From assembly GCF_001488575.1 (NCBI RefSeq), contig NZ_LN831304.1, forward strand, positions 52,626 to 92,625: a DNA stretch of 40,000 nt, read 5' to 3'. This DNA comes from Halobacterium hubeiense (GTDB lineage Archaea; Halobacteriota; Halobacteria; Halobacteriales; Halobacteriaceae). Numbering within the stretch: position 1 is the stretch's first letter; each line of letters begins with the position of its first letter. Below the pieces are notes generated by a model, which was not told where the DNA came from, did not search any database, and saw nothing but the letters and a program-made list of their open reading frames with translations. Position numbers and translations under genes: made by a program. Positions 2,323 to 24,067 of this stretch are shown in pieces.

Positions 2323-2349
2323 GTTTATTGACCCCTCGATGGGTGAGGG
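2323..2349 (+). promoter_or_regulatory. T-box/hairpin module n (weak stem), upstream of tfb
   Basis: GTTTATTGA-CCC(C)-tcGATGGGTGA-GGG. The loop matches the family consensus, but the stem is only 3 bp. Confidence 0.45.
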
Positions 2350-2389
2350 ACTCGCTGTACTGGCGGGTTCCCGAAACACGGTGAGAACG

Positions 2390-3316
2390 ATGGCAACTAG
2401 AGACATCTACGAGAGCGGATTCGACGAGGACGTCCGAACGGAATCGAGTGCGAACCAGTGTCCCGAGTGCGACGGTCGAGTCACCACGAACGCGGTCGAA
2501 ACGGTCTGCGAGGACTGTGGCCTGGTCATCGACGAACAGCGCATCGATCACGGGCCGGAGTGGCGGGCGTACGACGACGAGGAGCGCGAGCGAACGGGCG
2601 CTCCACTCACTGCGGCCCGCCACGATCGCGGCCTGTCGACGGAGATCGGTCGCGGCACCGACGCGAAGGGGAACGAGATCTCTGGGCAGAAGCGACGGCG
2701 ACTCGCACGGATGCGCCGTGAACAGACCCGAGGGCGCTGGCGGTCGAAAGCGGAACGGAATCTCGCACACGGGTTGGGCGAGGTGCGTCGGTTGGCGAGT
2801 GCGCTCGAACTCTCTGATTCGGTCCGCGACCAAGCGTGTCAGCTCTTCCGGAGCGCCCAGAACGAGGATCTGCTTCGTGGCAGGTCCATCGAGGCCATCG
2901 CCGCGGCCAGCGTCTACGGGGCCTGCCGGTGCAACGGCCTCTCGCGGTTGGTGGATGACGTCAGCGAGATGGCCCGCGTCGCGGAGTCACGGGTTACGAA
3001 CGCGTACAAAACGTTGAACGAGGAGCTGGGCCTCCCCGCTGAGCCCGTCTCCCCCAGCATGTTCGTGCCGCGCCTCGCCTCGGACCTCGAGTGTCCGGAC
3101 GAGATCCGACAGCGGGCCCGAACGCTCGCGGAGCAGGCCGAGGAGCGCGGCGTCACGACGGGCGTCCATCCGGCCGGGTTCGCAGCGGCCTGCCTCTACA
3201 AGGCCGGTCGCAAGGAGGGGCGATGGCTGACGCAATCCGAGGCCGCGGACGTGGCGAACGCCTCGAAGGCGACTGTTCGGGCACACCGAGATACCTTAGA
3301 GGAGCAGGTGGCCTGA
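2390..3316 (+). CDS. tfb: Transcription initiation factor IIB (TFB)
   Basis: The N-terminal zinc ribbon is CPECDGRVTTNAVETVCEDCGLV, followed by two cyclin-like repeats (GRSIEAIAAASVYGACR, GVHPAGFAAACLYKAG). ATG 2390 was chosen over the in-frame ATG 2339. Confidence 0.9.
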   Translation: MATRDIYESGFDEDVRTESSANQCPECDGRVTTNAVETVCEDCGLVIDEQRIDHGPEWRAYDDEERERTGAPLTAARHDRGLSTEIGRGTDAKGNEISGQKRRRLARMRREQTRGRWRSKAERNLAHGLGEVRRLASALELSDSVRDQACQLFRSAQNEDLLRGRSIEAIAAASVYGACRCNGLSRLVDDVSEMARVAESRVTNAYKTLNEELGLPAEPVSPSMFVPRLASDLECPDEIRQRARTLAEQAEERGVTTGVHPAGFAAACLYKAGRKEGRWLTQSEAADVANASKATVRAHRDTLEEQVA

Positions 3317-3430
3317 CGACGTGCGGAATCCTAAAGCGGTGTCTGCAGTAGAACTGGCCGACCGCTAATTCCGGCACGTGGGCAGTACACCCAGCAACGC
3401 TGCGATAGCTCTCGCTTTACAAATATTGCG

Positions 3431-3577
3431 CTACGATCGTTGTTCACGGACGCCATCACGGCCACGAGTCATATCCTCACAGTTCGGACATACACGGGGA
3501 CTCTCAACGGAATCCGGAGTAAATACACGAACGTAGACCTCCGTGACATGGCTGCCGCAGTTCTGACATTCCGCCAT
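3431..3577 (-). CDS. Small zinc-ribbon protein (CPxCG-related)
   Basis: MAECQNCGSHVTEVYVRVFTPDSVESPRVCPNCEDMTRG. This uses an internal ATG of track ORF 3431..3661. Confidence 0.55.
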   Translation of the reverse strand: MAECQNCGSHVTEVYVRVFTPDSVESPRVCPNCEDMTRGRDGVREQRS

Positions 3578-3741
3578 ACCAATAGCAGACATATCATCTA
3601 TCATAAGCCTTCTGACAGCGGGGTCTGAATGATATCGAGGCGTCTGAACAATTGCGTTCACTCAGAGCGGTATCTGTTGCATGACCGTCCAGTAGTCCCA
3701 ACCCAACTGTCGATACGGAAAGCTGACACTCTACTCGCCGT

Positions 3742-3774
3742 GTTTTAAGTACGGTGTCCGACGTGTAGTACCGT
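3742..3774 (+). promoter_or_regulatory. T-box/hairpin variant o, abutting the tbp ATG
   Basis: GTTTTAAGT-ACGGT-gtccgacgtgtagt-ACCGT-ATG. It has the same architecture and spacing as the family, but the loop is divergent. Confidence 0.35.
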
Positions 3775-4335
3775 ATGGGCGTGCCCGTGGAGACGATTCA
3801 CGTCGAGAACGTCGTCGCGTCCAGTGATGTCGGCCAAGAACTCGCCCTCGACCAACTCGCTATTGATCTCGACGGCGCCGACTACAGGCCAGAGGACTTC
3901 CCCGGGGTCGTCTACCGCCTCCAGGAGCCGAAGGCAGCCGCGCTAATATTCCGCTCGGGGAAAGTCGTCTGCACCGGCGCCAAAAGCGTCGACGACGTCC
4001 ACGAATCCCTCGAAATCGTCTTCGCCGACCTCCGTGAGTTAGGGGTCGACGTCGCCGATAGTCCGGCGATTACGGTGCAGAACATCGTCTCCAGTGCCAG
4101 TCTCGAGCAGTCGCTAAACTTGAACGCAATCGCAATCGGGCTGGGATTAGAGCAAGTCGAATACGAACCGGAACAGTTCCCCGGCCTCGTCTACCGCCTC
4201 GACGACCCCGACGTCGTCGTTCTTCTTTTCGGCAGTGGGAAGCTCGTCATTACTGGTGGGAACGAAACAGAAGAGGCCCAGCAAGCGCTCATCCACGTGC
4301 AGGACCGGCTTTCCGAACTCGGCCTATTTGACTAA
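3775..4335 (+). CDS. tbp: TATA-box binding protein (TBP)
   Basis: A two-repeat TBP fold is visible: IENVVASSDVGQELALDQLAIDL..FPGVVYRL..ALIFRSGKVVCTGAKS, repeated as VQNIVSSASLEQSLNLNAIAIGL..FPGLVYRL..LLFGSGKLVITGG. Confidence 0.92.
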   Translation: MGVPVETIHVENVVASSDVGQELALDQLAIDLDGADYRPEDFPGVVYRLQEPKAAALIFRSGKVVCTGAKSVDDVHESLEIVFADLRELGVDVADSPAITVQNIVSSASLEQSLNLNAIAIGLGLEQVEYEPEQFPGLVYRLDDPDVVVLLFGSGKLVITGGNETEEAQQALIHVQDRLSELGLFD

Positions 4336-4820
4336 GCCGGCCAGCTAGGAAGCGAGGGCGTCTCATTCTCCCAGCGAATCGCCGCTAACGCGGATGAGAA
4401 CTGCTGAAGCCGGTTATCAAGTGCGGCAAGTGGGTGCACATCGAGAAACGACGCGCTATGCCGATCGACAGGCGTGTCTTCGTGGTTGAGCTGGATGTGA
4501 CAGGGCCCAAGGTCTGGATGGTCGGCGTCCTGGTGGAAGCCGAGCATCAGGTTTCTCTCCGGTTCTATCCAGTTGATGCGGTAGTATTCGTGGTCGACGC
4601 CGGCGGGGTACCAGAAGCGAATCTCCAGTCGTGCGGTCGCCGCGCCGTAAGAGTTACTCAGGAACGTCGTCGGATCGACATCCGCGGTGACGTACCGGGG
4701 TCGGCGTCGAGACGGGCGATAGCGCACATCCTCACACCCAGCTTGATTCGTCAACCGGTCGTGAACGTCGCGAAGAAGGGTCCGCTGTGTATAGCGGTCG
4801 CGACCAGCGAGAAAGATCAT
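4332..4820 (-). CDS. Hypothetical protein, possibly a TumE/DUF6516-like toxin component
   Basis: The motif YRINWIEPERNLMLGFHQDADHPDLGPCHIQLNHED resembles the His-rich core I recall for TumE-family proteins. The assignment is from memory only. Confidence 0.5.
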   Translation of the reverse strand: MIFLAGRDRYTQRTLLRDVHDRLTNQAGCEDVRYRPSRRRPRYVTADVDPTTFLSNSYGAATARLEIRFWYPAGVDHEYYRINWIEPERNLMLGFHQDADHPDLGPCHIQLNHEDTPVDRHSASFLDVHPLAALDNRLQQFSSALAAIRWENETPSLPSWPA

Positions 4821-4837
4821 TCTGTGAGAGAGGAGGA

Positions 4838-5513: not shown

Positions 5514-6422
5514 ATGAGCCAACCGATGTACAACCGATATTCCGACTTTGAGGAACTGCGGCCGACCGGCGAGGCGTCCCACATTCCGGACACGAGGCTG
5601 GACGAGGGGTGTGAAGGTGACCCCCGGCGGCAACGCGTCGCGACGAGCTCTGGTGGCTACCCCGATGCGCCGACGGTAACCGATGGCGAGTGCCAGTCGT
5701 GTGGGGCGTCAGTCCCAGACGGCCAGACGAAATGCCGGTTCTGTCTCACCAACCATCTCGATGGTGACGCCACTAGCACGAACGAGACAGCGTCGACGAC
5801 GTTCCTCGGCATCGTCCACCTGGTCGTCGAGTCGACCACGTTCTACGGCGCCGTGGCGAAGGGCGGCGCCGCGGCGAACCTCCTCACCGCCAATGAGGCG
5901 GAGCCGGCCGTCGACGACTACACGCTCATCTACGACCTCGACGAGGCGCCAGCGCGCCATCTGGTCGAGCAATGGCCCTCACTTCCCGACGCGGTACAGG
6001 TGTCGTCAGCGGAGGGTGAGCGGCTTCTCAGTGCCGCCCATGACCGGACTGGGTGGCACGGCCAAGAAGCGTCGGAGCGTCCGGAGCAGGCCCCGACGCG
6101 CCTCTACGACCTGCGTGGGGACGGCATCCGCGGCGCGTCGCGTCTCGACGCGGTCCTCGACGACGCCGTCGACGCGGTGTGGCTGGTTCCAGCGATGGCG
6201 CTGACCGAATCTACTGGCGAAGCTGGGGCTGATCGGCAAGAGTCGTCGGTACCGACGACGCAGGAACTCGACTGTCAAACCTGTGGAGGGGCGACCGACC
6301 ATCAGTTCAAGACCCACGAGTCGGTCCCGGATGAAGCGTGGACGGGGCAACCGATCTGGGAGTGTCGGGTGTGTGGCTCGGCTCGCTACGGACCCAGCAA
6401 AGCGGGTTATGACTCGTCTTAA
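5514..6422 (+). CDS. Hypothetical protein with two zinc-ribbon motifs
   Basis: CQSCGASVPDGQTKCRFC lies near the N-terminus and CQTCGG..WECRVCGSARYGP at the C-terminus. Composition is acidic. Confidence 0.6.
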   Translation: MSQPMYNRYSDFEELRPTGEASHIPDTRLDEGCEGDPRRQRVATSSGGYPDAPTVTDGECQSCGASVPDGQTKCRFCLTNHLDGDATSTNETASTTFLGIVHLVVESTTFYGAVAKGGAAANLLTANEAEPAVDDYTLIYDLDEAPARHLVEQWPSLPDAVQVSSAEGERLLSAAHDRTGWHGQEASERPEQAPTRLYDLRGDGIRGASRLDAVLDDAVDAVWLVPAMALTESTGEAGADRQESSVPTTQELDCQTCGGATDHQFKTHESVPDEAWTGQPIWECRVCGSARYGPSKAGYDSS

Positions 6423-6460
6423 CCAACATAGCGACACAGAAACACACCAATGTTGGTTAA
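6419..6460. repeat. Conserved-arm palindrome 1: TTAACCAACAT-N20-ATGTTGGTTAA
   Basis: It has 11-bp perfect arms. The left arm overlaps the TAA stop of 5514..6422. Confidence 0.8.
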
Positions 6461-6499
6461 CGAGCAGGCCCCGTCCGACAGCTACCCGCAGCCGGAGAG

Positions 6500-6529
6500 G
6501 TTTCTCTGCGCCGTGAATCGGCGAGGCGC
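6500..6529 (+). promoter_or_regulatory. T-box/hairpin module j
   Basis: GTTTCTCT-GCGCC-gtgaatcggcga-GGCGC, 5 nt before ATG 6535. Confidence 0.55.
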
Positions 6530-6723: not shown

Positions 6724-6766
6724 GCGGCGGTATAACGATGAATCCGGATGTCTCGCTCCTGAGGCT

Positions 6767-6796
6767 GTTTATTGCCCCCCAGAAGGGGTGCGGGGG
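6767..6796 (+). promoter_or_regulatory. T-box/hairpin module a, upstream of the large TnpB-like gene
   Basis: GTTTATTGC-CCCCC-agaaGGGGTGC-GGGGG. Confidence 0.65.
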
Positions 6797-6817: not shown

Positions 6818-8626
6818 ATGACCCACCTCACTGAACAATTCCATATTCCCCGAGAGTATCACGCCGCCTGTTCCCGAATCCTAGAGCTCGGGCAACGCCA
6901 TCTCCGTCGATTGCTCAAGGAGGAATACTGGCGAGACAGGCACCTCGAAGCGATTCAGTCCCGCGATAGCAACGACCACACCTACGTCCGAGACGACGAG
7001 TACGAGCCGTTCGAGGACACAGACGCATACCTCTACAACCGATTCAAGCGATGTATCTACCATCGTGTTACTCGGATTCTAAAAGCTCATCGTGAGAAGT
7101 ACCGTGCCTTCCGATTCATCATCGACACTGTCGAGGAACGCAAAATCAGGCGGGTTGGATGGCAGCAGCTTCGAAGCCGCCTATTCGATAGTGGCGACTC
7201 ACCGTACATTCAGTGGAGCAATATCGAAACCGTCGTCGAGCAGCTAAACAATCATTACGACCGGCATGGCCGATTTCCTGAAGCATACACGGACCTCGTC
7301 GACTGTCCCCAGCCCGACGACACGGTTCCCTTCGGCCCGGACAGCCGTGGAGACGTCCACGATGTCCAAGTCACGGACGGAGACGTCATGGTGACGCTGA
7401 AGGCGCCGGATTCGCTATCGCCCAACTCGTATTCCGACTGGATAGAGCACGAAATACGGTTCCCAGCCCACCAACGGTTCAACGAGATGCTTGAGGCAGG
7501 GGAGCTGAAAGCGCCGACACTGCATTCCTCCGAACACGGCTATACGCTGGACGTGCCAGTGGATATTCCCGAGACCCCCGTTGACACCACTTCCGACCGT
7601 GTTCTCGCTGTGGACCTCGGCGTGAAAAAGCAGGCGACTGCGGTTGTGCTGGAAGGGTCTGAAGACAGGAAGGAGGAATCCCAGATCGCGCCACCCAACT
7701 TCGTCGACCACCACGCGAAGGACAAACTGTTTCGAGTGAAAGCCGACGCCGAGGGCATAGACAGCCGCCTTGCCGAACTCCGCCAACAGGGCAAGAGCCA
7801 TACCGAGCAGTTCGCTCACCTCCTCAACGAATATCGCCGGACGCGACGGAAGGAGCGACGTCTCCGCGACCAGATCCAGCACGATGTAGCAAATCAGCTG
7901 GTGTGGCTCGCGGCCGTTCACGAGTGCGAGACGATCGTCCTCGAGTCGCTAGGGCAGTTTGAGGCCGAAGAGACGGGTGGTGTCACGGCATGGAGCATCT
8001 CGACGTGGGCCCATGGGAAGTTACTTGAGCTGCTTCGGTACAAGGGTGACCTCCTCGGGCTCGACGTCGAGACGGTGAATCCCTGGGGGACATCACGCTA
8101 CTGTCCGCGATGTGGCGAACGCGGCAAGACCGTGAAGTCCCCGACCGATCACACCGAGTTACGCAACGGCGGCCACTTCTACTGTCCCAGCTGTGAGTAT
8201 GAGTGCGACCGAGATGTGGTCGGCGCGGTCAACGTCGGACGAAAACACCTCTCTGGGAGTCGGATGGAAACGGCGAATCCCTGTGTCTACACGGCGCGGG
8301 GAAATCACGCCAGCTTTCCATCACGCCGCACCTGCGAGCGTGTCCGTTCTGATGCCGGCACGGAGGAACCAGAACCCGTGTCGGTGCCTGGCGTTCAGTC
8401 CGCGGCCAGCAGTGAACAGGATCCGGCGAGTGGCCGTCAGACCCGATTGTCCGAGTACCGTTCTTCGTCCCTCAGTACGATACGAAGCCGGGCAGAGGGA
8501 GGACTGCAACAAAATCAGAGCAGGAAGACGGGACTGCGGTGTCCCAGCGGGAGCATTACGAGGCAGTGCTTGCTCGCCAGCACGACCGATTCCCATGAGA
8601 TGCTTCCAAATCCTGCCGAAAATTAG
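6818..8626 (+). CDS. Large TnpB/Cas12-like RuvC nuclease (IS200/IS605 OrfB superfamily) with an extended N-terminus and an Arg/Ser-rich tail
   Basis: The RuvC-I motif is RVLAVDLGVKK and RuvC-II is ETIVLESLGQF. The zinc ribbon is CPRCG..YCPSCEYECDRDVVGAVNVGRK, which includes the RuvC-III Asp. ATG 6818 was chosen over GTG 6788, which lies inside the module hairpin. Confidence 0.8.
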   Translation: MTHLTEQFHIPREYHAACSRILELGQRHLRRLLKEEYWRDRHLEAIQSRDSNDHTYVRDDEYEPFEDTDAYLYNRFKRCIYHRVTRILKAHREKYRAFRFIIDTVEERKIRRVGWQQLRSRLFDSGDSPYIQWSNIETVVEQLNNHYDRHGRFPEAYTDLVDCPQPDDTVPFGPDSRGDVHDVQVTDGDVMVTLKAPDSLSPNSYSDWIEHEIRFPAHQRFNEMLEAGELKAPTLHSSEHGYTLDVPVDIPETPVDTTSDRVLAVDLGVKKQATAVVLEGSEDRKEESQIAPPNFVDHHAKDKLFRVKADAEGIDSRLAELRQQGKSHTEQFAHLLNEYRRTRRKERRLRDQIQHDVANQLVWLAAVHECETIVLESLGQFEAEETGGVTAWSISTWAHGKLLELLRYKGDLLGLDVETVNPWGTSRYCPRCGERGKTVKSPTDHTELRNGGHFYCPSCEYECDRDVVGAVNVGRKHLSGSRMETANPCVYTARGNHASFPSRRTCERVRSDAGTEEPEPVSVPGVQSAASSEQDPASGRQTRLSEYRSSSLSTIRSRAEGGLQQNQSRKTGLRCPSGSITRQCLLASTTDSHEMLPNPAEN

Positions 8627-9495: not shown

Positions 9496-10071
9496 TTAGG
9501 TTCGATACCAGGCCCAGCCAGCAACTAGAATCAGTCCGACTGCGAATACGACGAGACCAGCCGGGAGCCCCCAAAGGGGGTCCGGCTGGTTCATCTCCGG
9601 ACCGGGTCCAGTAAAGGTTACTTCGACAGTCGTCGCCCGGATGCGTGTGACGATCCACTGGGCGAGGAGACTCAATACGCCGATGATGCCGACGACACCC
9701 AGTACGTCCTTTAGCTGCTCGCTCGACATCGGCTTCGTCTCGGAGGACTGCGCCACAAGTATCAGTGGGTCATGCGTAGGGCCGTAGAGCGTCATCTGAT
9801 TGCCCGACTCTGCGTGCGCAGTTCCGACGTCCATAATTATTCCTGCCGTCTCCAGTTTCCCAAGATGGTATTGCACGTTCTGGAGTGAGGTGTCAACGTC
9901 ATCAGCGAGTTCCGAGGCGGTTCGTGGTTCCTGATAGATGGCGGCGGTAACGTCACGTGCGGTATCAGATGCTAATGCCTCGCACACTGGATCGGCGGCA
10001 TCATCACCGATCTCAATCAGTTGCTCTTCTGCTGGATTTTCACGTGTGGAAAAAGAAAAGATTCGGCTCAT
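9496..10071 (-). CDS. ArsR-like winged-HTH protein with C-terminal transmembrane segments
   Basis: PRTASELADDVDTSLQNVQYHLGKLETAGII is ArsR-type. There are two hydrophobic helices near the C-terminus. Confidence 0.7.
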   Translation of the reverse strand: MSRIFSFSTRENPAEEQLIEIGDDAADPVCEALASDTARDVTAAIYQEPRTASELADDVDTSLQNVQYHLGKLETAGIIMDVGTAHAESGNQMTLYGPTHDPLILVAQSSETKPMSSEQLKDVLGVVGIIGVLSLLAQWIVTRIRATTVEVTFTGPGPEMNQPDPLWGLPAGLVVFAVGLILVAGWAWYRT

Positions 10072-10356
10072 TGTGGGCTGTGCGTCTGTACTACCTAGGT
10101 TCGGATAATCATAATGACCAGTTCAATCGTTCTTTTAGTAGCCTGAATTTCCGCGATATATCTTCAGTTGGGTTCCAAAATCCGACTCAGTACCCTCGTG
10201 TGGTAATTCGTGCATAGTCCGCAGTGTCACTGTATGTTCTGATGTGATTAGCAGGCCACGGTTAACAGGAATCAAATCGGTCACAGATGACTCAGACACC
10301 ACTACTGCGCGCAACCGCCCGCAACGATCAAACTCACGACCCGATCGACGAGTAGC

Positions 10357-10386
10357 GTTGTTCGTCCCCCGGGAGGGGTGCGGGGC
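10357..10386 (+). promoter_or_regulatory. T-box/hairpin module b
   Basis: GTTGTTCGTC-CCCC-gggaGGGGTGC-GGGG, followed by the GCAGTCGC box and an SD. Confidence 0.65.
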
Positions 10387-11085: not shown

Positions 11086-11110
11086 GTCGATCTGCTTCGT
11101 GGCAACTGCT

Positions 11111-11139
11111 GTTTTTCAGGGTCGGAATGGGTGAGCCCC
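11111..11139 (+). promoter_or_regulatory. T-box/hairpin module m (degenerate stem)
   Basis: GTTTTTCA-GGG-tcggaATGGGTGAg-CCC. The loop is conserved, but the stem is weak and of opposite polarity. Confidence 0.4.
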
Positions 11140-11575: not shown

Positions 11576-11596
11576 GAATCCGCCGTCACGAGGAGA

Positions 11597-11628
11597 GTTT
11601 TTCGAGCGCCGGCGATGGGTGCCGGCGC
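11597..11628 (+). promoter_or_regulatory. T-box/hairpin module c
   Basis: GTTTTTCGA-GCGCCGGC-GATGGGT-GCCGGCGC. The stem is 8 bp. Its 24-nt core is identical to that of module d. Confidence 0.75.
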
Positions 11629-12676: not shown

Positions 12677-12832
12677 ATGGCGAATCGGTTTCAAATCGAC
12701 GGCGAGGAAGTTCTCGACGGCCAAGTCAAGGAGTTCGGGAACAGCGCCCACGTCACCGTCCCCAAACGCTGGCGTGGGGCTAACGTGAAAGTCGTCCGTA
12801 CCTCAGAACCAACCGAACAAGACGAAGAATGA
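12677..12832 (+). CDS. DUF2080-like / AbrB-SpoVT-like transposase-associated small protein
   Basis: MANRFQIDGEEVLDGQVKEFGNSAHVTVPKRWRGANVKVVR. Its stop overlaps the tnpB start (ATGA). Confidence 0.75.
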   Translation: MANRFQIDGEEVLDGQVKEFGNSAHVTVPKRWRGANVKVVRTSEPTEQDEE

Positions 12833-14106
12833 CTGATTCACAGGCTCTCATCAAGACGCTGGACTTCCAGCTCGACATCCAGAGCGATAATGAGAGCCTG
12901 CTGTACGACGCCACCCTCGAAGCGAGGTCGGTATACAACCAATCTATCCGACTCGCCAAGGAAGGTGTGGATTGGAACGTCATTCCCGACCGCGTGGCCG
13001 AGGACGCCAGCCTCGTGAAAAACACGATACAGCGCGTCGTCGCCAAAGCACTCGGTGCGATGGAGAACTACTACGAGTATGACGACTACAACAAACCCAG
13101 CCACACCAAAGACGGAACGTACCCGCTCCGGGCGAACTACGAGGAGGGGTACAACCTGTCACTCACCGACGACGGCGACGTGGCGTTCCGGATCAGCGCG
13201 AAGCCCTACAAGCACGTCAAGGGCGTCCTCGATGGTGACGACGCTCATCTCGACATTCTCAAGACCGCCCTCGAAAGCGATGCATGGACGATTGGGACGG
13301 CGGAAGCCCTGTTCCGAAACGGCAACGCCGAGCTGCACGTCAACGTAACTAGCTCCGAGGGGACCGTTCGAGACAAGGAAAATTCACGGACAGTCGTTGG
13401 CGTGGATGTCAACGAGGACAATGTGGCGCTGACTGCACTCTCCAAGGGCAGTGTCGAGGACACAGTCGTTATCGAATTTCCGGACATCAAGTTCAAGCGC
13501 CACCGCTATTTCACGATGCGGAAGCGCGTGCAGAACGCGGGGAAGGACAGCATCCACGACACGTTGGAAGGACGTGAGGAACGGTTTGTCCGCGACCGAC
13601 TCCACAAAGTGAGCCGTCATATCGTCGAGTGGAGCCAGCAGTTCGAGAAGCCGTGCATCGTCTTTGAAGACCTCAAAGAGATGCGCGATGGCCTCGACTA
13701 CGGATGCCGGATGAACCGACGCTTGCACCGCCTCCCGTTCCGCGCGCTTCAGCACTACACGTCCTACAAGGCAGCATTCGCGGGTATTCCGACGGCTTGG
13801 ATCAATCCCGAATACACGAGCCAATGCTGTCCGATGTGCGGTCATACGGAACGATCGAACCGTCACAAGAAGCGGTTCAAGTGCCAGTCCTGTTCGCATC
13901 AAGACCACGCCGACCGGAGTGCAAGCGTGAATATCGCCGTGAAAGGTATCGAAGAGCATCAAGAGTGGACTGTGCCTGCTCTCAACAGCCTTCCCACTGT
14001 GCGGACGGTGCGACGGCAGGCATCGGGGGCCGTGGACGCCCCGACCGTGACCCACGACGCCGTTCGAGGCTATCAGACCGATGGCGTCGCGGGAGTGTCC
14101 GACTAA
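12829..14106 (+). CDS. tnpB: TnpB (RNA-guided endonuclease, IS200/IS605 OrfB)
   Basis: RuvC-I is VVGVDVNEDN and RuvC-II is PCIVFEDLKEM. The zinc finger plus RuvC-III is CCPMCGH..FKCQSCSHQDHADRSASVNIA. Confidence 0.9.
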   Translation: MTDSQALIKTLDFQLDIQSDNESLLYDATLEARSVYNQSIRLAKEGVDWNVIPDRVAEDASLVKNTIQRVVAKALGAMENYYEYDDYNKPSHTKDGTYPLRANYEEGYNLSLTDDGDVAFRISAKPYKHVKGVLDGDDAHLDILKTALESDAWTIGTAEALFRNGNAELHVNVTSSEGTVRDKENSRTVVGVDVNEDNVALTALSKGSVEDTVVIEFPDIKFKRHRYFTMRKRVQNAGKDSIHDTLEGREERFVRDRLHKVSRHIVEWSQQFEKPCIVFEDLKEMRDGLDYGCRMNRRLHRLPFRALQHYTSYKAAFAGIPTAWINPEYTSQCCPMCGHTERSNRHKKRFKCQSCSHQDHADRSASVNIAVKGIEEHQEWTVPALNSLPTVRTVRRQASGAVDAPTVTHDAVRGYQTDGVAGVSD

Positions 14107-14180: not shown

Positions 14181-14185
14181 CCGCT

Positions 14186-14218
14186 GTTTTTCGGCCGGGC
14201 ACGAGGTGGTAGCCCGGT
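14186..14218 (+). promoter_or_regulatory. T-box/hairpin module l, immediately right of the IS
   Basis: GTTTTTCGG-CCGGG-cacGAGGTGGTAg-CCCGG. Confidence 0.55.
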
Positions 14219-15547: not shown

Positions 15548-15678
15548 CAGTTTCCGAGCAAGGACCCCACCCGACTGCCATCTTGCGAATTCCGGAATCC
15601 GTTTTTAACCGGGTTTAAGTTTCTCAGTTTCAGCCATTCGTCGAGATCCCAGAGACCCCACTCGATTCAGGAGAGGTT

Positions 15679-15707
15679 GTTTCTGCGCCGGCGATGGGTG
15701 CCGGCGC
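15679..15707 (+). promoter_or_regulatory. T-box/hairpin module d
   Basis: GTTTCT-GCGCCGGC-GATGGGT-GCCGGCGC. A third complementary copy, GCGCCGGC, lies at 15712..15719. Confidence 0.75.
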
Positions 15708-17684: not shown

Positions 17685-17740
17685 TTATGTGGACAGTACG
17701 TTGCAACTGCCAAATACGTTGCCGAACGCTACGCCGTCCT

Positions 17741-17771
17741 GTTTGTTGAACCCCTGAGAGGGGTGCGGGGG
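17741..17771 (+). promoter_or_regulatory. T-box/hairpin module e
   Basis: GTTTGTTGAA-CCCC-tgagaGGGGTGC-GGGG(G). Confidence 0.65.
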
Positions 17772-18482: not shown

Positions 18483-18613
18483 TGGAGACGCTTCGACTGG
18501 CGCGAGCCACCCACCAGCTCCTCGAACGAGGTGTCGAGGCGCTCGAGAAAATCGGGCGTGAACTGGAGCGATACAACGACCGACAGGAGCGCACCGACGA
18601 CACCGACTCGTGA
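18482..18613 (+). CDS. Small helical ORF (43 aa) bridging two overlapping genes
   Basis: Hand translation gives METLRLARATHQLLERGVEALEKIGRELERYNDRQERTDDTDS. Its ATG overlaps the previous TGA, and its TGA overlaps the next GTG. Confidence 0.35.
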   Translation: METLRLARATHQLLERGVEALEKIGRELERYNDRQERTDDTDS

Positions 18614-19275
18614 CCGAAACTCACTCTCTAGACCAAATACGGAGTACCGGCTTCCAGTATACGCCTACCCCCGAGGAGTGCTCGTGTCCCATCCATCGGG
18701 AGGGGCAGCCGGTCACGGCGCCGCTCGGTTTGCGGTTCGCAGAGCGCGTCCATATCGAAGCGATCCCGCGCCACGTCGCCGGCGCGATCTACGAAGCACA
18801 TCACTCCTATATGGACGATGTCCCCCGGACGAATCTCGTCCATCACGGACTCTGTTACCAGGACCAGCTACTAGGTGCGATTACGTGGCGCTATCCGCTG
18901 ATTCGCTCGCTGGAGTACGACGGAACGCGATTCGAGGGTGACGAAATCGTCGAGGCAGCACGGATTTGCATCGGCGTCGATTTCCCCAATCTCGCCTCTG
19001 CCGCCCTCGCCCGGTCGATGGAACGGTTCGTGCGTCGGCACGGTCGGCGACGAGGCGTTCGGCTCCTGCTGACGTTCGTGCGAGCCGACTTCGACGGCTC
19101 GATGATCAAAGCGCTCAGAGACAAGGGCTGGCACTGTGCCGGTAAAACGGACCCCGGCCAAGCGGGAAATCGCCCCGATAAGCAGATCCGAGAGCAGCCA
19201 AAGTGGCGGTTTCTCTGCGAAGTCCCAGCAGAGTCCGACCGGGAACAGGCCTCACTCGGGAGATGGTCCCCGTGA
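18610..19275 (+). CDS. Hypothetical protein, possibly a GNAT-fold Mom/XF1762-like acyltransferase
   Basis: The segments HHSYMDDVP..HHGLCYQDQLLGAITW..EIVEAARICIGVDFPNLASAALARSMERFV resemble the Mom-family layout as I remember it. This is a low-certainty family call. Confidence 0.6.
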   Translation: MTETHSLDQIRSTGFQYTPTPEECSCPIHREGQPVTAPLGLRFAERVHIEAIPRHVAGAIYEAHHSYMDDVPRTNLVHHGLCYQDQLLGAITWRYPLIRSLEYDGTRFEGDEIVEAARICIGVDFPNLASAALARSMERFVRRHGRRRGVRLLLTFVRADFDGSMIKALRDKGWHCAGKTDPGQAGNRPDKQIREQPKWRFLCEVPAESDREQASLGRWSP

Positions 19276-19851: not shown

Positions 19852-19893
19852 TTAACCAACACTCCTCGCCGTTCAGAGACGGGTGTTGGTTAA
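19852..19893. repeat. Conserved-arm palindrome 2: TTAACCAACAC-N20-GTGTTGGTTAA
   Basis: It has 11-bp perfect arms. It lies 38 nt after the stop of 19263..19814 and ends 5 nt before the T-rich run of module f. Confidence 0.8.
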
Positions 19894-19902
19894 CGTGGTG
19901 TT

Positions 19903-19934
19903 GTTTTTGCGCCCGGGAGAGGGGCGCAGGGCGC
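19903..19934 (+). promoter_or_regulatory. T-box/hairpin module f
   Basis: GTTTTT-GCGCCC-gggagaGGGGCGCa-GGGCGC. Confidence 0.65.
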
Positions 19935-19985
19935 GAGACGATGCAGTCGCACGTCGACGAGGATTCCTGAAGTGAGGTGACTGAG

Positions 19986-21146: not shown

Positions 21147-21243
21147 GAGCAGTCGGAGAGAAAATTCGCCAGGCGTGCTTCCGTTCTAGCGGCTGGAATC
21201 TACTGCTGACAGTATTAAGTGAGTAGGGGCGTACCCAGAGACC

Positions 21244-21555: not shown

Positions 21556-21566
21556 TTGGGCTTCGA

Positions 21567-21584
21567 GACAGCGCGAATCCTGTC
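21567..21584 (+). terminator. Hairpin GACAG-cgcgaatc-CTGTC followed by a T-rich run
   Basis: It lies 12 nt after the stop of 21244..21555, with ctctattttg downstream. Confidence 0.25.
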
Positions 21585-21659
21585 GTGAAGGCCTCTATTT
21601 TGATGGTCTCATTCGCAGTGGATGCACCTTCCCAAGATCTACTGCTTCAATTCTCTGCT

Positions 21660-21688
21660 GTTGCTCGTGCCCTCGATAGGTGGAGGCA
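21660..21688 (+). promoter_or_regulatory. T-box/hairpin module k (divergent)
   Basis: GTTGCTCG-TGCC-ctcGATAGGTGGA-GGCA, 6 nt before ATG 21695. Confidence 0.4.
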
Positions 21689-21694
21689 TCCGTT

Positions 21695-21916
21695 ATGGGT
21701 ACTTCTACAGACGACTCAGAGGCGTCAGACGAATTTCCGCCTGAAAAACGACTTGAAGCACCGAACACGCGCCTGATCAAGGCAGGGATCGAGACGATTC
21801 CGGATATGGAAACCCTCCAGGAGTGCGTTGCCTACGAGAACGCCCACCAGAATCGAACGCAGATTCTGCGCCGGCTCAAGTGGAAGGCTGAAGAGCTACG
21901 TGAGGGCGAAGAGTAA
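21695..21916 (+). CDS. Small hypothetical protein
   Basis: This uses ATG 21695 inside track ORF 21680..21916. It is preceded by module k. Confidence 0.5.
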   Translation: MGTSTDDSEASDEFPPEKRLEAPNTRLIKAGIETIPDMETLQECVAYENAHQNRTQILRRLKWKAEELREGEE

Positions 21917-21925
21917 GTTCTGTTC

Positions 21926-21967
21926 TTAACCAACACATTCCGCGTGGGTTTCCTTATTGTTGGTTAA
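21926..21967. repeat. Conserved-arm palindrome 3: TTAACCAACA-N22-TGTTGGTTAA
   Basis: It has 10-bp perfect arms. It lies 10 nt after the stop of 21695..21916 and upstream of module g. Confidence 0.8.
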
Positions 21968-21981
21968 CTGCCTGAGTCTCG

Positions 21982-22011
21982 GTTTTTCGGGCCCCTGAAT
22001 GGGTGCGGGGC
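21982..22011 (+). promoter_or_regulatory. T-box/hairpin module g, upstream of the HEAR-HNH gene
   Basis: GTTTTTCGG-GCCCC-tGAATGGGTGC-GGGGC. Confidence 0.7.
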
Positions 22012-22102
22012 AACCAACATCGATGAAGGATCACAGACACCAGAGCGGACATTCAAATACTGAGCCAGATCCAAACTGAGTGACTCAACCCCCTCAGAGA
22101 TC

Positions 22103-23320
22103 ATGGGCAAGAAGCTGTACTCAGACGATGAACTCCTCAATCGGCTCCAGAAATTCGCTGAAGAACTCGGTCGTCCCCCATCGCAGAGTGAGATGGACGA
22201 TTCAGGACCTCATGCTTCGAAGACGTACGGGAATCGGTTCGGGTCGTGGAATAACGCACTCGAGGCTGCCGGACTTCAAACCGGAACGAACGATCCAAAC
22301 GGACGACCATCAACGCCCGAAGAGGACCTCCTTACTGATCTCAAATCGGTTGCCGACATCGTAGGGGGAACTCCGTCAGAGCGAGAATACAGTAATCACG
22401 GAAAGTATTCGGTGAAGACATACTGCAAGCGATTTGCAGGGTGGAATGCAGCACTACAGGCGGCCGGTTTTGAACCGAACGTCGAAATGAACCTCTCCGA
22501 GGAGGCACTCATTTCTGCCTTACAAGAGTTCGCTGAGAAACTGGGTCGACCGCCCACGGTAGATGAGATGGACCGGAGTGGCCCCTACACCTCGGATTCG
22601 TACAAGCGAGCGTTTGGAACCTGGAATCGTGCTCTTCGACAGGCTGGGTTGGAAGTCCACTCCGTGTGGAATGTGAGCGAAGAGGATCTAATATCCGAAC
22701 TCAACAGTCTCGCCGAAGAGCTAGGCCATGTCCCTCGGAAGGATGAGATGCGGAACCAAGGGAAATGGAGTGGAGCAGTCTATCAGGAGCGATTCGGTTC
22801 ATGGAATGAAGCTCTCCGAGCTGCCGGCTTCGAGCCGAATGAGCGGTGGCGAATCTCACGGGAGGAGTTATTAGCCGAACTGCGGGCAGTCGCGGATGAT
22901 CTGGGCCACCCACCGACAACGACGGAAATGAACGAACACGGAAAGTTCACCATCGATCCGTATCAGCGTGAATTCGGAACTTGGCGAACGGCCCTTCAAG
23001 CGGCCGACCCGGACTATCTAGAAAACTACCGTCAGTCAGATACTGAGACAGTTCCGTTTGGCTCGAACTGGCCACAGATTCGTGAGGAGATCATCACCCG
23101 TGACAACGAGTCCTGTCTGCGCTGCGGTATGGGCCGCGAAGCTCACCGCGAGAAGTTCGGACGTGATCTCCCTGTTCACCACCGGATTCCTCGACGCCGG
23201 TTCTACAACGACCCAGACCAGTCGGTCGATGATGCAGATGTACCGAGTAACCTGCTGACTCTCTGTATCCCGTGCCATCGCCGCCTCGAACGGCTGCCAG
23301 TCCAACCAGTAGTTGACTAA
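22103..23320 (+). CDS. HNH endonuclease with five N-terminal homing-endonuclease-associated repeats (HEAR)
   Basis: There are five ~57-aa repeats of the type (E/D)ELLxxLxxxAEELGRPPTxxEMxxxGxxSxxxYxxRFGSWNxALxAAG. The C-terminus CLRCG..HHRIP..NLLTLCIPCHRRLE is an HNH motif. Confidence 0.85.
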   Translation: MGKKLYSDDELLNRLQKFAEELGRPPSQSEMDDSGPHASKTYGNRFGSWNNALEAAGLQTGTNDPNGRPSTPEEDLLTDLKSVADIVGGTPSEREYSNHGKYSVKTYCKRFAGWNAALQAAGFEPNVEMNLSEEALISALQEFAEKLGRPPTVDEMDRSGPYTSDSYKRAFGTWNRALRQAGLEVHSVWNVSEEDLISELNSLAEELGHVPRKDEMRNQGKWSGAVYQERFGSWNEALRAAGFEPNERWRISREELLAELRAVADDLGHPPTTTEMNEHGKFTIDPYQREFGTWRTALQAADPDYLENYRQSDTETVPFGSNWPQIREEIITRDNESCLRCGMGREAHREKFGRDLPVHHRIPRRRFYNDPDQSVDDADVPSNLLTLCIPCHRRLERLPVQPVVD

Positions 23321-23354
23321 CAAGCGAAGTCTTACGTTCAGCACAAAGATATCT

Positions 23355-23386
23355 GCCGGCGAGCAGAGCGTCCACCTGCCGCCGGC
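23355..23386 (+). terminator. Hairpin GCCGGCG-N18-CGCCGGC between the HNH gene and module h
   Basis: A 7-bp GC stem read directly from the sequence, followed by a T-rich stretch. Its function is uncertain. Confidence 0.25.
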
Positions 23387-23401
23387 GTGATTTCGCGACC
23401 T

Positions 23402-23431
23402 GTTTTTCGTGCCCCCCGAGAGGGCGAGGGC
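23402..23431 (+). promoter_or_regulatory. T-box/hairpin module h
   Basis: GTTTTTCGT-GCCC-cccGAGAGGGCGA-GGGC. Confidence 0.55.
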
Positions 23432-23461
23432 TCCTTCGAAAGCTCTCAGAGGTGACTTCCA

Positions 23462-23809
23462 GTGAGTCAACAACAGCGTCCTGACAACGTCTCGATCGAC
23501 GAGATCCCGGTCGATATCGACAACACGCAATCAGCGGAGGTCGATTCCGCCGACGTCCCCGACGAAATCGAGTCCATTACCCGTGGGCTCGCCGGTGAGC
23601 AGCCGCCGACGAATCCGCTGGTCGTGCTGAAAGCGGCCCGGTGGTGGTACATTCACGGCAAGGGCGGCACGGATCCCGCCTTCCAGTGGGCCATCGAGTG
23701 GGCGCGTCACCTTGCGACCGACACGCCTAGCGACGTCGAGCGGTTCGACGAGTTTCTCGAGTATCTCGTCACGGTCGGCTTCGCTGAGGAGCGATCAACG
23801 CTTCGCTAA
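23462..23809 (+). CDS. Hypothetical acidic protein (GTG start)
   Basis: A 115-aa ORF with the SD GAGGTGA 8 nt upstream, preceded by module h. Confidence 0.5.
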   Translation: MSQQQRPDNVSIDEIPVDIDNTQSAEVDSADVPDEIESITRGLAGEQPPTNPLVVLKAARWWYIHGKGGTDPAFQWAIEWARHLATDTPSDVERFDEFLEYLVTVGFAEERSTLR

Positions 23810-23956
23810 TCAGATTTCGTAGCACGCGACATCTTCGGCACCGCAAGTTGGACACTCATCAGCATCCTCTGTGAGTGTCTCTCCACAGTGCCGGCACTCC
23901 CACACCGTCGACGACTTCCCCTCGACGGCTTTGCGGAGTGTAGTCAGTATCCCCAT
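23810..23956 (-). CDS. Small zinc-ribbon protein (48 aa), below the ORF-track cutoff
   Basis: Hand translation gives MGILTTLRKAVEGKSSTVWECRHCGETLTEDADECPTCGAEDVACYEI. Confidence 0.5.
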   Translation of the reverse strand: MGILTTLRKAVEGKSSTVWECRHCGETLTEDADECPTCGAEDVACYEI

Positions 23957-24036
23957 CCGAGCGAAATGTGGTTTCCTCGGTTGTTAACACTATCCTCTAA
24001 CTCCCACCCCTACTTAAACAATATACACAGGGAGCT

Positions 24037-24067
24037 GTTTCTGCTGCGCCTCTGAGGGGTGCGGCGC
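24037..24067 (+). promoter_or_regulatory. T-box/hairpin module i, upstream of the ardC-like gene
   Basis: GTTTCTGCT-GCGCC-tctGAGGGGTGC-GGCGC, followed by the GCAGTCGC box. Confidence 0.65.

Follow-up and report, generated by a model that had tools for sequence, protein, structure and literature searches.

A repeated T-box and hairpin motif precedes the backbone genes of haloarchaeal T4SS/ArdC megaplasmids and may act as their shared promoter

A signal of about 40 bases, composed of a T-rich box followed by a GC hairpin with a conserved GGGTG, precedes each of about 14 backbone transcription units on one strand of the window (the whole 40,000-nucleotide stretch of Halobacterium hubeiense DNA analyzed here). 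The same motif recurs on a widespread family of haloarchaeal T4SS/ArdC megaplasmids, which carries Orc1/Cdc6, SSB/RPA, transcription factor B (TFB), an ArdC-like protein and a type IV secretion system (T4SS), and it marks the boundaries of shuffled gene cassettes, a feature overlooked in the preliminary description of this DNA. On balance, we favor the view that the motif is a common promoter of the backbone genes, including the gene for the plasmid's own TFB, and that it doubles as a shuffling junction, with the hairpin/GGGTG part probably acting as a control element. Both the position of the start site and the role of the hairpin are deduced here from sequence.

The elements follow the order G0-T-T-T-W-T-Y (G0 being the invariant G), a spacer of 2-4 nt, a GC-rich 5' arm, a purine-rich stretch, GGGTG(C/A) and the 3' arm. 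The 14 copies in the window could be aligned nearly without gaps by MAFFT, with 19-21 nt between GTT and GGGTG and 26-34 nt between G0 and the hairpin foot. A covariance model built from these copies and run on the window with filters off scored them at 26-37 bits, and the best non-member reached 11.7 bits. The preliminary description, whose coordinates and stem and loop strings were all correct on re-check, had placed the motif on the plus strand only and outside the 25-40 kb part; the scan agreed, as neither the minus strand nor the 25-40 kb part of the window gave a match. The covariance-model search of both strands proposed there recovered the 14 copies and found further ones in related plasmid DNA. 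No Rfam family matched the motif. It had been regarded as undescribed, but a precedent exists in halovirus HGTV-1, where a "TATA-like box plus inverted repeat" stands before most ORFs of one genome arm and was likened by its authors to the PeSL cassettes of T4-type phages; these two are the nearest known precedents for the motif.

All copies lie on the plus strand. Copy 1 (2321..2349, G0 = 2323, hairpin CCCTC/GAGGG, 29.6 bits) is located 5' of the TFB gene. It is followed by copy 2 (6498..6529, G0 = 6500, GCGCC/GGCGC, variant box CGGCG, 25.9 bits) and copy 3 (6765..6796, G0 = 6767, CCCCC/GGGGG, 36.5 bits), the latter upstream of a TnpB-like gene (6818-8626), and by copy 4 (10355..10385, G0 = 10357, CCCC/GGGG, 35.8 bits), 5' of a DUF6735 gene. 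Arm polarity is reversed in copy 5 (11109..11139, G0 = 11111, GGG(T)C/GCCC, 33.8 bits). The 8-9 bp stem GCGCCGGC/GCCGGCGC of copy 6 (11595..11628, G0 = 11597, 36 bits, z = -3.57), which heads a multi-gene unit ending at 14106, recurs in copy 8 (15674..15707, G0 = 15676, 36.6 bits, z = -3.76). Copy 7 (14184..14217, G0 = 14186, CCGGG/CCCGG, box GAGGTGG, 27.2 bits) precedes a DUF7567 gene, and copy 9 (17739..17770, G0 = 17741, CCCC/GGGG, 34.2 bits) precedes a DUF6166 gene, its G0 lying 57 nt past the start of a divergent Mrr-type endonuclease gene. In copy 10 (19898..19934, GCGCCC/GGGCGC, 30 bits) the 3' arm is duplicated by the box GGGCGC. The remaining copies are copy 11 (21658..21688, G0 = 21660, TGCC/GGCA, box AGGTGG, 30.3 bits), copy 12 (21980..22011, G0 = 21982, GCCCC/GGGGC, 36.9 bits), copy 13 (23400..23431, G0 = 23402, GCCC/GGGC, box GGGCG, 29.1 bits) and copy 14 (24035..24067, G0 = 24037, GCGCC/GGCGC, 29.6 bits), which stands 5' of the final gene of the motif-bearing block in the window. 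This gene (24113..25054, plus strand) encodes an ArdC-like ssDNA-binding protein, whose tblastn homologues occur on haloarchaeal and Gram-positive plasmids, the majority of them typed as conjugative or mobilizable.

Three sites with stems at 2333, 11119 and 3751 had been classed as weaker copies. The first two proved to be good members (29.6 and 33.8 bits), whereas the third (3738..3774, plus strand; TATA-like GTGTTTTAAGT, hairpin ACGGT/ACCGT) shares the hairpin geometry and T-box but has no GGGTG, was missed by the covariance model and was rejected as a family member. The start codon of the TATA-binding protein (TBP) gene sits directly at the foot of its hairpin. With G0 near 3742, position G0+31 would precede the ATG at 3775 by about 2 nt, so that the mRNA would be leaderless.

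Within 60 nt upstream, the T-box is the only AT-rich patch. A matrix derived from 27 experimentally mapped Haloferax volcanii promoters fits it at a single offset, with the transcription start site (TSS) at G0+31 and a mean score of +3.1; every other offset scored -0.3 or lower, and the background was about -9. The first ATG of the downstream ORFs never occurs before G0+34 and clusters at +34 to +41, the spacing that would be expected of leaderless or near-leaderless genes; in copies 2 and 11 (stems 6508 and 21668), the ATG lies 4 nt past G0+31. No other promoter candidate was detected between T-box and start codons, no conserved promoter-like sequence upstream of the T-box, and no other TATA-like sequence in the GC-rich spacers at divergent copies. 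The preliminary description had envisaged an element-specific promoter with a TATA-like T-box and a TSS at the hairpin foot. Matrix offset, ATG spacing and divergent copies support the promoter and its start, but the T-box looks like any other TATA box of haloarchaea, and what is specific to the element is the hairpin with the GGGTG box. Among the points against a promoter are the G-rich stretch that would have to melt and the lack, in the motif copies, of both the BRE typical of haloarchaea (CGAAA) and the -10/-11 WW element.

In the proposed mechanism, the T-box (G-TTTWT-C) would serve as the TATA element, with its T-run at about -30 to -26, and the predicted TSS lies about 31 nt beyond the invariant G, either at the hairpin's 3' foot or immediately after it. 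Such a start would yield either near-leaderless mRNAs or leaders of 17-90 nt with their own Shine-Dalgarno (SD) sequence. The element-specific segment, comprising the GC arms and the conserved GA-N-GGGTG box, would extend from about -23 to -1, and the region between TATA and start is the usual site of archaeal repressor action. This segment may be bound by a factor encoded on the plasmid or by an initiation complex containing the plasmid's own TFB, which, if true, would allow all units to be switched together.

The plasmid-type TFB gene (2390..3316, plus strand; Pfam TFIIB repeat 1.3e-36 plus TFIIB zinc ribbon), with homologues on 212 PLSDB plasmids, is a candidate for the reader of this regulon, its own gene being motif-led. 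The motif before it is also present in loci L001, L002 and L004, on pHV4 and on pHS2. Here we infer the link between motif and TFB from co-location only, which is counted against the promoter reading. TFB and TBP genes stand side by side in the window, the TBP gene (3775..4335, plus strand; Pfam TBP 1.1e-58) after the TFB gene; the TFB identity of the gene behind the stem at 2333 and the TBP gene that follows had both been overlooked. Part of the module is held by pHV4 of Haloferax volcanii, where expression of the motif-led genes as tabulated by Gelsinger 2018 is very low (values of ~1.1-1.5), as fits a repressed or factor-dependent regulon. The same plasmid has an annotated small RNA whose 5' end lies 35 nt upstream of G0 of the TFB copy; thus, an RNA containing the hairpin can exist, which counts against the promoter and for an RNA element.

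In such an RNA element, a fairly unlikely explanation, transcripts would start upstream as polycistronic or read-through RNAs, and the U-rich box and hairpin would act in intercistronic or 5' untranslated RNA. The SD-like purine-rich loop (GAGGGGUG against GGAGGUGA) might bind a protein or the 30S subunit, or the site might be processed to leave a protective 5' hairpin. Complementarity of the arms, which is counted in favor of this reading, is copy-specific. Two covariation scores exceeded those of all shuffles and slid controls (0.358 vs 0.154, and 0.246 vs 0.120). In a swap test of 22 non-redundant copies, arms formed 5.27 bp with their own partners and 3.91 bp with the arms of others (p<1e-4), and the difference persisted when only stems of <=6 bp were considered (4.56 vs 3.81 bp, p=0.003). 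Among orthologues of copy 14, the arms CGCC, GCGCC, GCCC, GCGCCCC and TGCCCC occur, and the 3' arm matches in every case. The covariation asserted in the preliminary description was borne out by these counts and by the swap test, but its claim of a selected structure is weakened by the low stability of most stems: when folded as free DNA, 8 of 12 copies had z-scores weaker than -1.5 and are thus no stabler than dinucleotide shuffles, the only outliers being the two GCGCCGGC copies (z near -3.7). Moreover, the GGGG of the box often offers the 5' arm an alternative pairing partner to the 3' arm.

Stem instability also argues against an RNA element, as does the lack of an RNA-strand signature, G:T pairs (63) not being favored over A:C pairs (53), although folding is slightly more favorable for the plus strand than for its complement (mean MFE -13.3 vs -12.4 kcal/mol). 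Many leaders carry strong SD sequences, which in Haloferax are typical of operon-internal genes, and some copies have GGTGGAGG as their box/arm sequence, followed by an ATG 8-9 nt further on; the SD sequences favor RNA-level action and count against a promoter. An mRNA starting at the hairpin foot would, in addition, not contain the hairpin, and arm complementarity points to a single-stranded state that would be superfluous in a plain double-stranded promoter. On the other hand, RNA-level action is difficult to reconcile with a T-box offset that puts the start past the hairpin, with upstream contexts that are unrelated and without conserved promoter-like sequence, with divergent GC-rich spacers offering no other TATA candidate, and with the absence of an Rfam match.

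Beyond the window, the covariance model detected 57 copies (E <= 0.23) on the plus strand of four homologous plasmid loci and no significant one on their minus strand. When it was run on about 1.6 Mb of related DNA, comprising 80 loci around ArdC homologues and, of plasmid NZ_CP098517, the two outer thirds, it detected 370 copies at E <= 0.02; every one of them lies on the gene strand and none on the opposite strand. The complete 107-kb plasmid NZ_CP098517 contains 19 copies, none of them in its T4SS operon or defence region, and in the plasmid loci compared, cargo genes (P-type ATPases, merA), the T4SS operon and defence genes are not preceded by the motif. The distance from a copy to the annotated start codon downstream of it is 2-54 nt; in long spacers, copies keep close to the downstream start and not to the upstream stop. 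Some are situated 57-150 nt after divergent genes, so that no co-directional transcription reaches them.

The absolute strand specificity (370 vs 0) raises the decidedly unlikely alternative of action on single-stranded DNA, in which hairpins would form on the entering strand, if the plasmids transfer single-stranded, and serve ssi-like priming or early expression of establishment genes while the plasmid is not yet fully double-stranded, in a manner comparable to phage N4 hairpin promoters and to the Frpo-type promoters found in bacterial leading regions. The motif region, with all its motif-led genes on one strand, starts right behind the primase genes and reaches the ArdC-like gene, homologues of ArdC are characteristic of conjugative plasmids, and SSB and T4SS belong to the family core. 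A DNA hairpin would also suit complementarity without an obvious RNA role. A start at G0+31 would center the hairpin at about -12, where the promoter hairpins of phage N4 are centered, and the near silence of motif-led genes in a resident copy fits as well. However, single-strand transfer is an assumption of this reading, stems of 4-6 bp with loops of 11-14 nt are weak, the tie to start codons is unexpected for priming sites, and gene orientation explains the strand bias equally well. Furthermore, the T-box lies outside the stem and would stay single-stranded, whereas TBP and TFB bind duplex DNA in archaeal initiation.

Comparison of plasmids revealed four sites at which homology blocks begin at G0 (+/-2 nt), each joined to many different upstream contexts, which are unrelated among copies of one cassette. 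Many contexts are joined at G0 of the copy 8 cassette, homology ends at 22022 in 32 loci at copy 12, and at least 7 distinct contexts join at 23399-23403 at copy 13. The gene behind copy 12 encodes an HNH endonuclease here and is a DUF6610 gene in most relatives. In one chimeric copy, the crossover lies inside the loop. The same 40 bases occur 15-20 times per plasmid in one orientation, and under the promoter reading recombination between copies may therefore move or replace "promoter plus gene" cassettes. It is very unlikely that the motif is instead recognized by a plasmid recombinase, e.g., of the XerA type, in the manner of integron attC sites, with expression being secondary. Junctions at the invariant G-T-T with many independent upstream contexts, the chimeric copy and the single orientation of all cassettes would suit such a site, attC is likewise defined by structure and a GTT triplet, and for the XerA reported in the published account of this plasmid family no site could be identified. 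Nevertheless, a crossover in the loop and not at GTT is what homologous recombination between copies of similar sequence would give, sequence inspection showed the attC-defining AAC...GTT pairing in only some copies, the borders of true cargo genes are without the motif, and the arms are variable, as opposed to conserved tyrosine recombinase arms. The TATA match and the tight relation to start codons would also be left unexplained.

The T-box resembles the Haloferax intergenic terminator, a T-stretch with termination at C, and T-boxes are found 6-100 nt past co-directional stop codons. With its T-run followed by C, a copy serving as promoter may also stop transcription from the upstream unit. 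That it would be a terminator or insulator only, with the hairpin as a back-up in read-through RNA and promoters elsewhere, appears highly improbable: the stretch between T-box and start codons has no other promoter candidate, there is nothing to terminate at copies after divergent genes, and many T-boxes are not T-runs (GTTGTTC, GTCTATC, GTTTCTC). The pHV4 3'-end table lists no termination site at any motif copy, which is weak evidence since expression is low there. Termination would be favored by a palindrome with 10-bp arms, present <=30 nt upstream of the T-box in 100 of 276 cases, most commonly at spacings of 0, 6 and 14 nt. In addition, a second repeated element, TTAACCAACA-N22-TGTTGGTTAA, was identified at 19852..19893, 6 nt upstream of the copy 10 T-box, with further copies in the window at 6419-6460 and 21926-21967 and 264 paired copies in 1.76 Mb of related loci.

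A repeated module of about 40 bases, composed of a T-box (consensus GTTTWTY) and a GC-rich hairpin, is present in 14 copies in the window. In each copy, the T-box, whose invariant first G is referred to as G0, is followed by a spacer of 2-4 nt and a GC-rich 5' arm, beyond which lie a purine-rich stretch, a GGGTG(C/A) box and the complementary 3' arm. The 14 copies give a nearly gap-free MAFFT alignment with a fixed distance of 19-21 nt from GTT to GGGTG, and the last stem base is found 26-34 nt from G0 (median 29). The preliminary description of these sites had given 26-32 nt for this distance. Its coordinates and stems for the 14 sites proved right on rechecking in the window; a further site at 3751, which it had counted as a weak copy, has the same geometry without the GGGTG box and is not a member.

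Because a loose hairpin descriptor turned out to be too permissive (1129 plus-strand versus 955 minus-strand hits in the full locus set, and 446 in shuffles), a covariance model built from the 14 window copies (R1) was used. An unfiltered R1 scan of both strands of the window scored these copies at 26-37 bits and the next best match at 11.7 bits, with no match on the minus strand and none in the 25-40 kb part, which upholds the earlier impression of a plus-strand module absent from the housekeeping genes there. No Rfam family reached its gathering threshold on either strand of the window.

The 2-25 kb part of the window is a mosaic relative of a block that extends from a TFB gene to an ArdC-like gene and is found on 165-212 haloarchaeal plasmids in PLSDB. 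Homologues of the TFB and ArdC regions of the module are present on 184-212 plasmid-collection records from many haloarchaeal genera, and examples of block carriers are Haloplanus sp. GDY1 unnamed3, Haloarcula marismortui pNG600, Natrinema sp. J7-2 pJ7-I and Haloferax volcanii pHV4. A recent paper on this plasmid family has described Orc1/Cdc6, SSB, TFIIB, an ArdC-like protein and a T4SS cluster as common components, with no mention of promoters, hairpins or intergenic signals, and no prior description of the motif on this plasmid family was found in the literature. By using R1, 57 copies were detected at E <= 0.23 on the plus strand of four related loci, whose minus strand gave no significant match. 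A much larger set, consisting of 80 loci around ArdC homologues and the two outer thirds of NZ_CP098517, contained 370 copies (E <= 0.02), nearly all of them upstream of ArdC. A covariance-model scan of other Halobacteria loci on both strands had been proposed at the outset as a check of the module, and all 370 copies in that scan share the strand of ArdC. On the 107-kb Haloplanus plasmid NZ_CP098517, 19 copies are distributed from just past the primase genes to beyond ArdC, and R1 detected none in the defence region or within the T4SS operon. The cargo carried by the block (genes for P-type ATPases, merA and their regulators) is likewise free of the motif. The phage collection gave no megablast match, and a strict pattern of the plasmid motif had no match in IMG/VR. 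In Halobacterium salinarum R1, a motif copy precedes the TFB gene of pHS2, a locus that is unmatched in all other Halobacterium salinarum plasmids of the collection, including those of NRC-1.

With respect to genes, nearly every model match in the annotated loci is followed by a plus-strand start codon after 2-54 nt, and the distances cluster at 2-5, 14-26, 33-42 and 49-54 nt; for the window copies, 0-90 nt had been given at first. In long spacers (150-376 nt) the motif keeps close to the downstream start, and approximately 10 copies in the annotated loci sit 57-162 nt past the start of a divergent gene. Motif-led genes in the window include the TFB gene (2390-3316), a small ORF, a TnpB-like gene, DUF6735, DUF7567 and DUF6166 genes, an HNH endonuclease gene with homing-endonuclease repeats, the ArdC-like gene and several genes without a family match. 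The TBP gene (3775-4335) comes next after the TFB gene, and ordinary metabolic and transport proteins are encoded past ArdC.

Several additional features of these genes were observed. The region following the ArdC-like gene (25455-39743) encodes a thioredoxin-reductase-like protein, TauE, PHO4, a rhodanese/beta-lactamase-fold protein, DsrE, NosD/NosL, an ABC ATPase and cytochrome bd oxidase, and the usual post-ArdC gene of most related plasmids is absent from the window together with its motif copy. Two TnpB-like genes with a Cas12f1-like TNB domain are located in the block (6818-8626 and 12829-14106), the first of which lies directly behind a motif copy; a TnpB gene of pHV4 is likewise preceded by one (12945-12984 in L089, the fetched locus spanning 18,382-45,834 of the pHV4 record). 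The ArdC-like gene has a leader of 42-45 nt (24068-24112 in the window; 9960-10000 in the related locus L005, for example), which is almost invariant among relatives with 87-96% identity to the ArdC protein of the window and holds both a small hairpin, GTCT-gaac-AGAC, and the Shine-Dalgarno sequence GGTGA.

The best-supported reading of the motif is that of a shared promoter of the plasmid backbone genes, because of its position and strand, the lack of any other TATA candidate and its single-offset match to mapped promoters. Among 36 non-redundant copies, T1-T5 of the T-box are the sole AT-rich positions from 60 nt upstream to 80 nt downstream. A promoter matrix was made from 27 71-mers ending at mapped Haloferax volcanii dRNA-seq starts, with the TATA element centred at -28. 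When slid along the motif, it was positive at one offset only, placing the start at G0+31 (mean +3.1), and gave -0.3 or lower at all other offsets against a background of about -9. The parts that match at this offset are a G at -31, a T-run from -30 to -26 and a C at -25. No motif copy occurs among the 71-mers of the table as used, which stops short of the pHV4 rows, and Haloferax processing-site and mixed RNA-seq data list nothing for the motif-led genes. A TATA-like T-box with transcription starting at the foot of the hairpin had been the original model; the matrix fit agrees with the T-box part, a TTWT element lying about 28 nt before the start in silico, and makes G0+31 a predicted start site. 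A second canonical TATA box further upstream, with G0 itself as the start site, was also considered and rejected, no AT-rich peak being present at -25 to -30.

Ordinary haloarchaeal promoters have been reported to combine TTWT about 28 nt before the start with a CGAAA BRE and a WW element at -10/-11 (PMC4983044). The motif resembles them in its TATA part and in the flanking G and C at the single matching offset, but differs in other parts. Upstream of the T-box no BRE (CGAAA or A-rich) is present, the seven preceding positions (-7 to -1) being G/C/T-rich with the consensus GG-T-G-C-T, and some copies have GGAGA(G) there with no A-rich consensus. The WW element is also absent at -10/-11, where G20/G21 of the GGGTG box are found; with a start at G0+31 this box would occupy -11 to -7, and together with the GC arms it fills the interval from TATA to start.

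The positions of start codons are consistent with this geometry. In 270 distinct contexts, the first ATG of the downstream ORF (at least 60 codons) is never nearer than G0+34, and these ATGs cluster at +34 to +41, +48 to +59 and +72 to +79 from G0, which would fit leaderless or short-leader genes. Copies 6508 and 21668 have an ATG 4 nt past G0+31. Separately, a look-alike of the motif before the TBP gene (3738-4335) has a canonical-looking TTTTAA box and a hairpin (ACGGT/ACCGT) that lacks the GGGTG box; the ATG sits at the foot of this hairpin, about 2 nt past the equivalent of G0+31 (counted by hand). The TBP mRNA is probably leaderless, and the ATG spacing of the look-alike and of copies 6508 and 21668 is the pattern of leaderless haloarchaeal genes.

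Since its T-run followed by C equals the Haloferax intergenic terminator signal (a T-stretch with termination at C), the consensus GTTTTTC may allow the T-box a possible dual role as promoter and terminator. Many T-boxes are not T-runs, some copies follow divergent genes, and the 3'-end table contains no termination site at the pHV4 motif copies, where expression is low.

Evidence for the hairpin comes from covariation and from the pairing of individual copies. In model-derived alignments, the covariation score was 0.358, compared with 0.154 for shuffles and at most 0.153 for slid partners, and a second independent set gave 0.246, compared with 0.120 and at most 0.140, respectively. The outer pairs swap freely between C-G and G-C, and the two inner pairs are nearly always C-G. 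An alignment-free swap test, in which each 5' arm was matched with its own 3' arm and with the 3' arms of other copies, yielded 5.58 bp for own versus 4.10 bp for other arms among 36 copies, 5.27 versus 3.91 bp among 22 non-redundant copies (p<1e-4), and 4.56 versus 3.81 bp for stems of up to 6 bp (p=0.003). At the orthologous sites upstream of ArdC, the 5' arms are CGCC, GCGCC, GCCC, GCGCCCC and TGCCCC, with the 3' arm matching each time. The early claim of stems that vary while complementarity is kept is supported by both covariation and the swap test, but the stems themselves are weak: 8 of 12 copies folded as free DNA have z scores weaker than -1.5, i.e., they are no stabler than dinucleotide shuffles. 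Moreover, the G-run of the box often offers the C-rich 5' arm an alternative partner to the 3' arm.

If the motif is a plain duplex promoter, the copy-specific complementarity is left as one unexplained feature, which keeps the readings as an RNA element and as single-stranded DNA alive. As a test of which strand folds, a preference for G:T over A:C mismatches gave no signal (9 versus 16 in the anchored stem search and 63 versus 53 in the model alignments); the folding strand may be either one, as DNA or as RNA. A plus-strand search for GCACCCnTC as an antisense partner of the loop produced no standout candidate on the complete plasmid.

A rather improbable reading is that the hairpin is read in single-stranded form, as an archaeal counterpart of the single-strand promoters of plasmid leading regions and, by analogy, of the hairpin promoters of phage N4. 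When the plasmid strand enters, or when the plasmid RPA/SSB assists local melting, a GGGTG hairpin centred near -12 would be available; the plasmid's own TFB (plus TBP where present) would recognise it, and a burst of establishment and anti-restriction gene expression would follow and be shut off once the plasmid is resident. The N4 promoter hairpin is centred near -12 and needs SSB, and Frpo/ssi and N4 elements are, similar to the motif, strand-specific hairpins before early or establishment genes on the same strand. Genes led by hairpins adjoin ssb-, ardC- and primase-type genes both in Frpo-type leading regions and here. On the other hand, Frpo elements are long hairpins of about 300 nt that rebuild duplex -35/-10 boxes, and those of N4, with loops of 3 nt, are used by a polymerase of the phage, whereas the plasmid motif has a weak stem of 4-8 bp with the TATA-like box outside it, and no long hairpin rebuilding duplex promoter boxes is found.

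For the shared promoter, the simplest idea is that the GC arms and the GGGTG box are a factor-binding or control site, since archaeal repressors act between TATA and start and the genes are almost silent in the resident host. On pHV4 (L089) the TFB gene is present along with nine motif copies, and the motif-led genes there have very low values (about 1.1-1.5) in published RNA-seq tables, with strong antisense RNAs over them (values 145-1642). The annotated small RNA HVO_A0024s begins at pHV4:25725, which is 35 nt before G0 at the TFB gene (L089 19961-20014, i.e., pHV4 25707-25760), and its start coincides with a mapped 3' end after the TTTTCC terminator of the preceding gene. From co-location of the motif-led TFB gene and, in the window, the adjacent TBP gene, a dedicated initiation factor is plausible. 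If the plasmid TFB reads the motif, the two together would be a naturally occurring case of an alternative archaeal TFB selecting its promoters.

Of the arrangements described so far, that of halovirus HGTV-1 comes closest. According to the summary in PMC3950731 of the work of Sencilo et al. (2013), a TATA-like box and an inverted repeat precede most ORFs of one genome arm; the authors proposed roles in transcription regulation and shuffling and likened the motif to the PeSL cassettes of T4-type phages. The same layout can be seen in the HGTV-1 genome sequence (CTTTTTATA, then ACTCCTCG-tggca-CGAGGAG). Both motifs belong to haloarchaeal mobile elements, have a T-rich box and a GC-rich inverted repeat within about 8 nt, and recur in a single orientation, in HGTV-1 before most small ORFs of one arm. 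However, they are without sequence similarity, the arms and boxes being unrelated. The arms of HGTV-1 are conserved in sequence, whereas those of the plasmid motif vary and covary; HGTV-1 lacks the GGGTG box and has extra TATA-like boxes and CGAAA..CTTAAT between repeat and ATG, where the plasmid T-box is the only candidate; and its carrier is a virus rather than a plasmid. As a side observation, ORF 18610-19272 in the window weakly resembles the Mom family of DNA-modification proteins, below the threshold (24.1 bits versus a cut-off of 27.1; E = 3e-5), and the motif-rich arm of HGTV-1 encodes a Mom-like protein too.

PeSLs, in which a promoter is combined with a terminator, mark the limits of indels and undergo recombination with one another (PMC2839356, PMC4122927). 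As in PeSLs, a short promoter plus stem-loop signal is repeated here in front of accessory genes within plastic regions, the signal marks where indels and replacements begin or end, and modules of signal plus gene are shuffled between copies. When window 1-26 kb was compared with all fetched loci by blastn, homology blocks tended to begin at the motif and to end at gene stops, with block starts no more than 2 nt from G0 at 14186, 15676, 17739 and 23400. One unit of motif plus gene is joined at the same nucleotide to at least 7 unrelated upstream sequences, and a downstream family may occur in as many as 12 different upstream contexts. The motif at 21991 is retained and the gene behind it differs (HNH in the window versus DUF6610 in 32 loci), homology to these 32 loci stopping at 22022, about 10 nt past the hairpin foot. 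A chimeric copy in Halorubrum hochsteinianum (L004 23620-23760) switches in the loop, its left half (upstream context, T-box and 5' arm) being of the 23396 type and its right half (box, 3' arm, leader and ATG) of the 17735 type, from which it follows that recombination between copies happens; it looks homologous rather than site-specific. This chimeric copy leads into a truncated gene. The role in recombination is real; that it follows from the number of similar copies is more likely than that the motif exists for it.

PeSLs are built on a bacterial sigma-70 promoter with the stem-loop as a transcription terminator, whereas in the plasmid motif the stem-loop is flanked by TATA on one side and the predicted start on the other, a layout that is not terminator-like because the T-run precedes the stem. 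Mini-circle intermediates are a further feature of PeSLs. The motif thus shares layout and shuffling with HGTV-1 and PeSL elements but not sequence, and has variable paired arms, a conserved loop box and a plasmid carrier, which makes it a variant within a known kind of element.

Integron attC sites were also compared, as they are structured, variable in sequence with a conserved GTT, and delimit one-way cassettes with junctions at GTT on elements encoding, as here, an Xer-related recombinase. Unlike attC, the motif lies 5' of the gene, is absent from cargo genes, has its observed crossover in the loop and gives each unit its own TATA-like box rather than a promoterless cassette; no adjacent integrase, attI or common promoter is found, the recombinase gene being elsewhere on the plasmid. 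The R''/R' AAC...GTT pairing is not general in motif copies: by eye, only some of the 14 window copies have AAC near the 3' arm, and GTT is outside the stem. An attC-like CTGTT/AACAG outer pairing, seen by inspection at the ArdC copy and a few others, was rejected as not general.

One recognisable signal before 15-20 backbone units per plasmid defines a regulon. The motif also accounts for the mosaic structure of these plasmids, since cassettes are exchanged at it, and extends the PeSL/HGTV-1 idea from viruses to archaeal plasmids. Moreover, R1 can be used to annotate transcription-unit starts and to correct start codons in hundreds of haloarchaeal replicons.

In addition to the motif, a second repeated element (TTAACCAACA-N21-23-TGTTGGTTAA) of 41-42 bp, whose inverted 10-bp arms are conserved and whose centre varies, was observed at 6419-6460, 19852-19893 and 21926-21967 in the window, in the related loci L085 (5325-5366) and L086 (2521-2561), and elsewhere. 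The 1.76 Mb of related loci contain 264 paired copies, often 0, 6 or 14 nt upstream of a T-box; the element also precedes the T4SS operon and is found close to orc1 and polB genes and between divergent genes. Its possible roles are those of an operator, a terminator acting in both directions or a site of the partition type.
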